Shown here: positions 1-3,000 of the stretch, one piece after another
Position numbering within the stretch: position 1 is the first letter of the stretch
How the letters are laid out: the number at the start of each line of letters is the position of its first letter
NCBI GenBank assembly: GCA_048270185.1
Contig: JBLWTJ010000001.1
Coordinates: 1,536,001 to 1,600,000, forward strand
DNA from: Bacteriovoracaceae bacterium
GTDB taxonomy: Bacteria; Bdellovibrionota; Bacteriovoracia; Bacteriovoracales; Bacteriovoracaceae
Length of the DNA stretch: 64,000 nt
Reading direction: 5' to 3'
Position numbers: made by a program

Positions 1-3000
1 TCGATCGTTTTGATCAAGACTAAAGAAGTCGTGATGAATTTCTTTTAAAGTTGTAAGGAAGTTTTTCATTGTGTGATAACCATAAGCGAATATTTTTTAT
101 CTTCTAATTTTGAAAAAGAAGACAAATCAAGCCATTTAGAAGCATCAAGAGTTAAACTTGTTACCTCATTACTCTTATTTTCTGGATAAATTTCAACAAG
201 GTACTTACCCTCAACACGACGGCAAGTTAAATAAAAAGAATCTCCAGCAATATCTATTGAAAACGACTTATCTTCAATACCTATTAAATCTGTTATTCTT
301 TCAACTTTCTCCTCTTTTAATTTAGTTTCTTCTTTAAATTTAAATTTACAAAAACTATTTCTAAGAGTCGGTCTTGTACGAGAAACAAATTCATCAGGAA
401 ATTTTGATTTAATAATTTTAGCAATTAATTCAACTCTCTCAGGTAGAGTTGTGACATTGAGACAATGGCGATTAGAATCAATAGAGACTTTTTCTCCATC
501 AATTAAATATGATTTTAATTCGTATCGAATTTGATGAATTGGCTTCTTATTATTAAAGCAATAATCAGAAGCACTAACAGATGACGTTACAACTAGTGCA
601 GCAATAAGATATCTAAGAATCTTTTTGATCTTCCGGTAAGTAAGTATCACCCTTTTGTCCTTCCATGAACTCTTCAGCCGACTTATAGTCACAAAGACTT
701 AAAGTTGTTTGAAAATTAAACCCTTTAGGAAGTTTACCATCTTTTGCTAGATCGTCACATGAGCAAGAAAGTGTCTTCATGAAATCAAAGAACTTTGTGC
801 TCGTTTCTTCACTTAGTAGGTGTTCGATCATACAAGAGTCTTTTTCTGCAATATCTTCAGAGACACCGACAAAGTCTTTAAGAAAGTAATAAAGTAAAGT
901 TCGAGAAGTTAATGTTTTATGAACTTCATCATGACCAAGATCTGTTAATAGAAGAAACTTTGTATCATCTTCTTCTTTAACGAGGTCTCTTTTCTTAAGA
1001 TTATTTAAGGCAGTTGATACTGATCCTTTCGTTAAACCTAAGTCCTTTGCAATATCAGTTACACGAGCATAACCTTTTTCTTCTTTAAGCTTATGAATAG
1101 CCAAAAGGTAGTGAACCATTGAATGAGAAAGCTCTGCTTCTCTTGGCTTCTTATCTTTAGGAGTTGATGTCGTACTTGTTGTATTGGCCATGATTTATCT
1201 CACAAATTAGGTTATGCCTCTAATCTAGCAATTTCAGGTATTATTGGCAAATCTCCATCGAGACATGCCCCAAATTCTGTGCAGCGATTTTCCAGTCTTA
1301 TTATAGCACACATAACTATAAATACCTGAAATTACGTATAAAATTTAAAGGCATATATTACACTCCTCCCCCACGATGCCACAGCATGTTAAAATCACTT
1401 ATAAACTAATAAAATTAAGGATAACCCATGTTTAGAATCTGTTTGCCCCTATTGTTGATGCTCATAATGGCCACGCAAGGCTTTGCGCAGACAACAGATG
1501 GAACAGCTCCTAGTAAAGCCGATGTACAAAGTGGAAATCTCACGGACCAGCAGAAGCACGTCATGGAGAACTTTACTCACCAAGGATATCAGCAACGTGA
1601 AGCAGATGATCTCTGGGCCAAAGAATGTGGAACCAGTGAAGACTGTAAGAATATTCGAAATGGTGGAAATGCGACAGACGGTGAAAAATTTATGGGGATG
1701 AGTCCCTCTATGTTTAAGGCAGTGGGACAAGCTTACTCAATGATTATGCCTGCAATGGCACAAAGTGGTGATAGTAAATTTGGAAAAATTGATCGTACGA
1801 CAAAAGCCGATGTTGAAGCATCATGGTCTGAACGTGGGATGACAAAGAATGCTGATGGAGCTTATGAAGTTAGTAATCAAGAAGATTTTAATAAGTGGAA
1901 TAATAGTCAACCAGAACATAAGCGCTTTGGTGATGATGGTACTCGATTAAAGCAAAAACAAGTAACAAAGAGAACACCAGATGGAAAAGTTACAACAGAA
2001 ACAAAATACGTCGATAAAGATGGAAAGTTAACTGATAGTCCTGATGAAGCTGTCGTCGAAAAACAAGATGAGGTCGCTGCCCAAGAAGAAACTGATGCTG
2101 AAGAAAAAGAAGGTGAAGACTACTGTCAGTATATTCCAATGGGTACAGAAGTAATTGCAGGTGCGCTACAAAAAAGTTCGAATGAATTTGCACTAGCAAC
2201 ACAGCCTGAAATTGAAAACTCACAATCAGGGGCCATGTACAAACAAGCAAGAGCTCATAAAGATAGACAAAAATCAGTTGATATTCAAAGAAAAGGATGG
2301 GGCGCCACAACAGCATGTTACGCTATCGCCATGGCACAACCAGGTGGATACTCAAGCTGGACAAACTACGTAAAGCTAGGTGCTGCAGGTCTTATGACTT
2401 ATTATTATATGTGGGAATATGACCTTCATGATGGTGCAGCTAAAAAGCTAACAGATGTTGCAAACCAACTTAGTGGAAAAGGAAAATGTAATCCAGTTTC
2501 AGACCGCGACTGCTATTGTGGTCAACCAGAAACTCAAAATGATACACAATATTGTTATCCACAAATTCGTCAACGAATGGCCCAAAACAATAACTACCAA
2601 GTAACTTGTGTTGATAATAATGTTAAAGAAGACCCTACCTGTGCGTGTCGCCAAACAAATTCTTGCCTCGACTCAAGAGTTCAGGCAAAGATTAATGATA
2701 TGTACATTCCAGGAGGACTAGGGGCCAGCCTCGATGATTTCTATAAAATGACAAATGGTGTTTCTTCACCTGGAGGAGACACGAGTACATTCAAGGCCAG
2801 TAACGGTAAGTTATTTGCTTTTGCCAATGACAAACTAAAAGAAAATTTAAATAAAGTTAAGATTCCAGACTCTTATAAGAAGAAAGATGAAGGGGTTGCA
2901 TCCACACTAAGAAGCCTAGGTTTCGATGGAGCTGTGGCCAATGCACTATCAGCGGCACCAGAAACAAAAGAGAGTAAGGCAGCTGAAGATAAGCTAAAGA

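Follow-up and report, generated by a model that had tools for sequence, protein, structure and literature searches.

A DtxR-family protein as probable iron-sensing master repressor of Bacteriovoracaceae, acting through a WGTTTG-N6-CAAACW operator in place of Fur

The gene at 613-1191 on the minus strand of the 64-kb window (the whole stretch of DNA analysed, whose position 1 is contig position 1536001 and along which gene coordinates are given) probably encodes the iron-sensing master repressor of Bacteriovoracaceae, which would act through the operator WGTTTG-N6-CAAACW and replace Fur, the usual iron regulator of Gram-negative bacteria. In the proposed mechanism, sufficient Fe(II) would fill a site of the regulator composed of His27, Cys120, Glu123 and His124, probably together with His23. 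The metal-loaded dimer would then bind the 18-bp operator over or just after the target promoters and block transcription of feoAB, the imelysin-DHOR genes, the siderophore island, FTR1-type permeases, bfd(-bfr), DUF6607 and MauG-type genes, and at low iron it would be released again. Binding of the operator by this regulator is very likely, judged from motif placement and covariation, and, given such binding, Fe(II) is likely to be the signal. Repression of the uptake genes is proposed because DtxR and IdeR act in this manner. The regulator would have taken over iron control when canonical Fur was lost in Bacteriovoracaceae, an order of events that we infer. With regulator, operator and target list, this is the first handle found on how Halobacteriovorax, Bacteriovorax and related bacteria control iron, and it would represent a clean case of a DtxR-type protein replacing Fur across a Gram-negative family of prey-invading predators. 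The principle of a DtxR protein serving as iron regulator is already known from Actinobacteria as well as, according to passages of the respective reports, from haloarchaea (PMC10783522) and Chlamydia (PMC5599777). A literature search for DtxR or an iron regulon in Bacteriovoracaceae found no paper; RegPrecise and supplements lay outside this search and could bear on novelty.

Assignment of the 192-aa gene product to the DtxR/MntR-family metalloregulators is based on Pfam, PDB search, AlphaFold, Foldseek and alignments. It matches Fe_dep_repress with 37.5 bits (cut-off 26) and Fe_dep_repr_C with 37.2 bits (cut-off 27), and its gene is the only DtxR-family gene above the Pfam cut-off in the host, a Halobacteriovorax-like genome of Bacteriovoracaceae with an assembly completeness of 95.9%. 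As is typical of the DtxR/MntR fold, Pfam and Foldseek agree on an N-terminal winged helix, here with recognition helix T54-K-G-S-V-S-T60, followed by a dimerisation/metal domain, which carries His23, His27, Cys120, Glu123 and His124. The best Foldseek matches of the AlphaFold model (pLDDT 81) are MntR, DtxR and IdeR, all with prob 1.00. An SH3/FeoA domain is absent according to the Pfam scan; the protein ends in a short, family-specific tail, modelled as two short helices and terminating in Q-x-G-D. Nearly all of the 80 regulator-like loci listed belong to Bacteriovoracaceae or related bins, and the nearest named relatives among them are from Halobacteriovorax isolates (91-92% identity).

At its locus, the regulator gene shares a promoter region (1192..1427, unstranded) with a divergent gene of 627 aa without Pfam family (1428..3311, plus strand), a constant neighbour which served as synteny marker for gaps and losses of the regulator. 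On its other side it is overlapped by a downstream ORF without family (66..692, minus strand), which adjoins the marker gene also in genome G121, where the regulator is absent. A matrix scan of 1192..1427 detected no operator upstream of the regulator gene (best score -3.1), and there is no sign of autoregulation in the host genome; among named orthologues, an upstream site scoring at least 12 is present at 3 of 76 loci. Directly before the gene lies a half site resembling a DtxR box, at a place where the operator matrix scores no site.

Four exact and four one-mismatch copies of the palindrome AGTTTGA-N4-TCAAACT occur in the host genome, all eight outside gene calls, and 7 of the 28 copies with two mismatches are intergenic. 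In a de novo search of upstream DNA for spaced 6-mer palindromes, GTTTGA-N4 ranks third, with 5 occurrences observed versus 0.045 expected, behind palindromes which are GC-rich and, judged by eye, terminator-like. Additionally, a matrix of 32 feoA sites from other genera, chosen with a matrix from the host's non-feo sites so that the test is not wholly independent, yielded 13 matches scoring at least 15 in the host genome; all 13 are intergenic, with intergenic DNA making up 13.4% of the genome. Twelve matches are wholly intergenic, compared with 1.05 on average and at most 6 in 200 column-permuted matrices. By these results, the palindrome proposed in the genome-wide survey's note holds. Iron- or heme-linked targets account for 6 of the 13 top matches, and the other seven precede genes without clear iron link; the bfd site scores 14.9 with the same matrix.

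The targets named in that note (feoAB, the siderophore island, an imelysin/di-heme operon, bfd, DUF6607 and two MauG genes) were confirmed by Pfam, applied to 61 of the 81 proteins neighbouring sites. The assigned families are FeoA/FeoB (site at C2:440213), IucA/IucC plus ornithine/lysine monooxygenase (C3:94361), imelysin plus DHOR (C3:71236), bfd plus bacterioferritin (C1:106848), DUF6607 (C3:177633) and two CCP_MauG proteins (C1:768984 and C2:365190). The distance from site end to gene start is 32-55 bp for these named targets. The siderophore-island site precedes the first iucA/C gene by about 3 kb, with two small genes and gaps of 235 and 337 bp in between, and the bfd and imelysin sites carry two mismatches each. 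Further operator-like sites listed among the main ones are found at C1:345774, C3:373652, C2:595085 and C1:1137713. None of the main sites is inside the 64-kb window, whose sole operator-like site (55365..55382, unstranded; two mismatches, score 17.6, intergenic) lies about 210-240 bp before an unknown gene of 105-116 aa; a two-mismatch copy is at chance level for the window alone, and membership of this site in the regulon is uncertain. Elsewhere in the host genome, two TonB receptors, a second bacterioferritin, Dps, suf and the single ZnuA/TroA-type operon are without site, and Nramp was not found. In relatives, where 40 of 55 site neighbours were scanned, the first 30 matches listed include five sites preceding FTR1-type permeases, three preceding MauG genes, one each before feoA, imelysin, DUF4856 and HiPIP, and eight before one unknown lipoprotein. 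The target list would thereby mark several unknown proteins as iron-regulated, namely DUF6607, MauG-type di-heme proteins, small secreted proteins and a lipoprotein behind nfu.

Using a clade profile of 26 family sequences at a threshold of E<=1e-40, an orthologue of the regulator was identified in 221 of 236 family genomes versus none of 193 other genomes of the phylum, 7 of which contain a distant DtxR gene. The earlier count of Fe_dep_repress in 202 of the 236 family genomes had been too low, as the recount by Pfam gives 224. Likewise, the exact 16-mer GTTTGA-N4-TCAAAC occurs 535 times in the 236 family genomes versus 124 for the reversed control, and 83 versus 86 times in the 193 others. 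Genome G096, said before to have no exact site, contains eight exact 16-mers, though the label may denote a different genome than earlier. Some apparent sites were discarded: the six exact sites of outside genome G250 all fall within 21 kb, where the locus read is repetitive, fibre-like coding sequence, and the site of G117 lies within an acetate kinase gene, in its first codons. The relaxed pattern WGTTTG-N6-CAAACW, applied to 60 chosen genomes, is too near background to part orthologue-positive from orthologue-negative genomes. Family-level co-occurrence of gene and motif is one evolutionary event and cannot by itself name the binder.

The distribution of Fur is the mirror image. In the host genome, the Fur family (PF01475) gives no match at E<=1, and no other iron regulator candidate was found there. 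Strong Fur matches of at least 100 bits amount to 2 of 237 in the family versus 53 of 70 outside genomes, a selection from the 193 that spans families; of the two family matches, one is on a 2.2-kb contig and the other is a Fur-FeoA fusion. The earlier statement that Fur is missing is thus correct for the host genome and for canonical Fur, but not for the relatives, as 143 of the 236 family genomes possess a weaker Fur-family gene. ZnuA-, ZnuD-, CobW-, ZrgA/DUF3299- or MerC-like neighbours accompany these genes at many of 50 loci, others have no telling neighbour, and feoB is found beside a Fur-like gene in G116 and G113. The cut-off of the Zur model is reached by none of 22 family Fur-like proteins and that of Fur by one (G063). 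Judged by gene context, most of the Fur-family genes left in the family may be zinc regulators (Zur).

A closer link between site and protein is provided by the feo loci, for which the 900 bp before feoB were scored at 60 loci in 59 genomes, using a matrix from which the feoA seed had been left out. At the 45 orthologue-bearing loci, 28 score at least 14, 32 score at least 12 and 13 score below 12. Of the 10 orthologue-negative loci, one has a strong-scoring site, and the 2 diverged and 3 outside loci have none. The single orthologue-negative genome with a strong site is G044, whose regulator locus is cut by a contig end. The sites mostly lie 240-340 bp from feoB, corresponding to 0-60 bp before feoA. 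All of 35 feoA sites compared have T at -7. In G122, the orthologue itself heads a dtxR-feoA-feoB operon with a site 20 bp before its start. In a quick tree, built without P0111-P0150 and without rows shorter than 125 aa, the nearest diverged orthologues, from G055 and G116, group as sister to the main clade (support 99); their genes adjoin feo operons. Their helices read AKSSVNL and ARSSVTI versus TKGSVST in the regulator, and their sites read GTTAG-N6-CTAA, present as a tandem pair in G055 and as a single copy with a mismatch in G116. The same TTAG dyad accompanies classic DtxR genes beside feoAB in G113, G115 and G048; in a sister clade heading FTR1-CDF operons, a TTAG site is present at 3 of 8 loci and none at the other five. 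TTAG-N6-CTAA and the TTTG operator are one base per arm apart. Across five whole genomes, RTTAG-N6-CTAAY shows no enrichment (93 versus 129 in the control), so the TTAG sites are local. In G239 (helix TKGAVSM, gene behind an Fe(III) ABC operon), the predicted TTTG site was not found.

Parallels on the DNA side come from characterised relatives. The operators of Treponema TroR given in passages of PMC2628430, ATTTTGA-N4-TCAAAAT in T. denticola and ACTTTGA-N4-TCAAAAT in T. pallidum, form an 18-bp dyad with the same TTTGA-N4-TCAAA core, flanked by AT/AC..AT versus AG..CT in the host genome. TroR, whose gene was found behind a TTTGA-N4-TCAAA operator at locus L296, carries the helix TPGTATS compared with TKGSVST. 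For B. subtilis MntR, which also binds an 18-bp dyad, helix residues are described in parts of PMC11882963 as reading positions 4-7, with T at -7. Together with the G122 operon and the covariation of helix and operator, these parallels point to a DtxR-family protein, namely the 613-1191 product, as the likely binder. The claim of a DtxR-type repressor that governs iron uptake through the palindrome is thus supported by the feoA sites, the G122 operon, the operator-helix covariation and the mirror pattern of Fur.

It is improbable that the palindrome is read by an Rrf2, Crp/Fnr or unrecognised family-wide protein and that the DtxR-like gene has a different function. Such a binder would suit G121 (95% complete, 220 contigs), which has a perfect site before a frame reading as a FeoA start and in which the regulator gene is absent at the usual locus and in three sequence searches; assignment of this site to EF-G was rejected because of that leftward frame. 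G121 would be explained if the gene had moved and now fell in a gap, if it had been lost recently or if a different protein bound the site. Also in G111 and G046, weak sites occur at the usual place without the regulator gene, and there the marker gene is missing too. The rarity of autoregulation, the four Rrf2 and two Crp-family genes of the host genome and a weak site 108 bp before its Fnr-like gene fit a different binder as well. However, the Rrf2 genes sit by likely targets of their own (flavohemoglobin, iscS-like, nitric-oxide-reductase-like and sufBCDS genes, the middle two judged by eye) and none of the four has an operator site upstream, while the Fnr-like gene has its own dyad, ATGAC-N4-GTCAT, 66 bp upstream. 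The two Crp-family genes also have other likely targets, and apart from the weak site before the Fnr-like gene they lack an upstream site. Moreover, among DtxR relatives a changed helix goes with a changed operator, and G122, G055 and G116 link the DtxR gene to feoAB.

The palindrome could in principle also be an RNA hairpin in the leaders, with a 7-bp stem and a 4-nt loop, or a by-product of promoters, since its arms can pair, the left arm holds a -35-like TTGA(C), and in the best structure of one leader out of three the motif forms a hairpin. A hairpin is unlikely because the arms do not covary: across 35 feoA sites there is no covariation between would-be pairs (18 versus 17.1 in shuffled sets for pair 1-18), and what covariation exists is confined to two central bases, which are unable to pair in RNA. 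Leader folding z-scores of -0.6 to -1.5 and the lack of a fixed spacing between the motif and -35/-10 elements complete a picture in which this explanation is extremely improbable compared with a protein operator. The stretch with feoAB has no RNA holder listed.

Regarding the metal site of the DtxR-family regulator, the primary site of DtxR is retained with His27 replacing Met10 and with Cys120, Glu123 and His124 as equivalents of Cys102, Glu105 and His106. The ancillary ligands H79, E83 and H98 are replaced by Arg97, Tyr/Phe101 and mostly Glu116. Alignment with MntR places His27, Leu30, Arg97 and Cys120 at D8, E11, H77 and E99 and keeps E102 and H103, so that two of the six binuclear ligands remain. 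His23, His87, His91, Arg97, Asp118, Cys120, Glu123 and His124 are found in 80 of 80 named orthologues and Glu37 in 79; Cys120, Glu123 and His124 recur in all 26 rows of the family alignment. Invariance of His27 and His33 among the 80 is built in, both being part of the search pattern, but both are invariant in the 26-row alignment as well. In the AlphaFold model, His33/Glu37 and His87/His91 form i, i+4 pairs on two helices, and these four residues may make a new metal site. According to parts of PMC11672702, Cys at DtxR position 102 is an iron-type and Glu a manganese-type residue, and full activity of DtxR needs both primary and ancillary sites.

An operator-bound regulator that senses Mn, Zn, Ni, Co, heme or redox instead, via the conserved histidines or a Cys143/145/167 triad, is unlikely, if less so than a different binder. 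Its top sequence matches are MntR proteins, 3 of 10 relatives looked up bear the automatic name 'Mn-dependent' (the others are without name), and passages of PMC2628430 report Mn and Fe as signals for T. denticola TroR and Mn or Zn for T. pallidum TroR. His33, Glu37, His87 and His91 are invariant or nearly so, and several targets are heme proteins. Yet the regulator scores far below both NCBIfam MntR cut-offs (60 versus 153 and 59 versus 138), four of the six MntR ligands differ, no Mn importer is among the targets, 6 of 26 rows lack the Cys triad, and the host genome yielded no other candidate for iron regulation. If Fe(II) is indeed the signal, the automated name 'Mn-dependent regulator' would be wrong for the Bacteriovoracaceae clade.

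Roughly two thirds of the 150 best representatives have His at the Met10 position; they make up a wider unnamed group, one side of a branch with support 95 in the quick tree. As a tentative extension, which we regard as possible rather than probable, the regulator could be the type member of an undescribed DtxR subfamily (H-x3-H ... C-x2-E-H) that senses iron by a single His3-Cys-Glu site. The Bacteriovoracaceae branch would have added a second site (His33, Glu37, His87, His91) replacing the ancillary one, and a local feo regulator would have switched its helix from TTAG to TTTG reader, spread the operator over iron genes and displaced Fur family-wide. This natural ligand set and the helix/operator pair would offer a test of metal and DNA choice in DtxR proteins.

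Compared with known systems, the regulator shares with actinobacterial DtxR/IdeR the fold, the Cys102-Glu105-His106 equivalents and a regulon of siderophores, iron transport and bacterioferritin (PMC11672702, in part), but differs in the His at Met10, the ancillary ligands replaced by Arg, Tyr/Phe and Glu, the missing SH3-like domain, the operator and the Gram-negative host. The match to TroR made earlier stands for operator core and helix but not for the protein, which was rejected as a TroR orthologue: no significant pairwise match exists (best E 2.8), TroR is on a separate branch in the quick tree, and it has Asn10/His79/Glu102 ligands and, as given in passages of PMC2628430, controls a single troABCD operon. 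The regulator gene is not inside such an operon, as its neighbours have no family. B. subtilis MntR, the top PDB sequence match, resembles the regulator in the 18-bp dyad, T at -7 and the absence of an SH3 domain, but not in the ligands D8, E11, H77 and E99 nor in the predicted targets, which are iron and not manganese genes. Chlamydia YtgR is likewise a DtxR-family iron regulator in a Gram-negative bacterium without Fur, but is cut from a permease fusion and has a small regulon (PMC5599777, in part). Haloferax TroR is another DtxR-family iron regulator outside Actinobacteria, though with the motif TTTAGGC-N3-CCTAAA (PMC10783522, in part). Neither is known to have the ligand set of the regulator. 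In alpha-proteobacteria, Fur has reportedly been replaced by RirA and Irr, successors belonging to the Rrf2 and Fur families. There, too, the iron regulon passed from Fur to another regulator; here, the successor would be a DtxR-family protein.

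Throughout Bacteriovoracaceae, the DtxR-type regulator is regularly accompanied by a divergent gene of 627 aa (window 1428-3311), which is without a Pfam family and is retained even where the regulator has been lost. The bfd-bfr genes are faced by a convergent ferrochelatase-MFS transporter fusion in a single 808-aa frame (locus L043:143-2569).

Among the proteins encoded behind operators, a 213-aa lipoprotein of genus g4 is a candidate for a new iron-regulated protein. A strong operator site lies between its gene and nfu (loci L090, L092, L094, L096, L100, L108, L109 and L112), a location which accounts for eight of the first 30 sites listed in relatives, and two homologues of the lipoprotein are found in the genome under study. 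Furthermore, secreted proteins of about 170 aa, forming a single unnamed family, occur three times behind operators, namely in the siderophore island, at the end of the imelysin operon and in genome G005 (L038:1935-2456, L046:233-736 and L087:1556-2050). In several genera, the operator ends only 1-3 bases upstream of the feoA ATG (L219, L220, L222, L224, L226, L229), leaving no space for a ribosome binding site; hence, feoA messages may be leaderless there.

In the deep Bacteriovoracaceae members G113, G114, G116 and G117, feoB is present in multiple copies, alongside fusions of Fur with FeoA and additional DtxR metal domains (L054:1369-2142, L072:1135-1962, L288-L294), and the TTTG site is absent upstream of most of these genes. 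In a sister clade of DtxR genes, the regulator comes first in a compact operon, dtxR-FTR1/cytochrome c-CDF (L275:2529-5834, L276, L278, L280, L281, L283), with a perfect TGTTAG-N6-CTAACA dyad at three of eight loci of the clade. This operon looks mobile, since its occurrence is patchy within and beyond the family and merR-like genes adjoin it in one case.

Despite a ZnuA-type operon (L269:361-3128), no Fur-family gene is present in the genome under study, and such a gene is likewise missing in six of 12 congeners. The outside genome G250 contains a very long, repetitive fibre-like gene region (contig C1:209-231 kb; L193-L198). Finally, in the genome under study, a dyad ATGAC-N4-GTCAT, a variant of the FNR box, is located upstream of an Fnr-like gene in the cbb3 oxidase cluster and at three further intergenic positions (C1:592939, C1:1096309, C3:259868, C1:132258).
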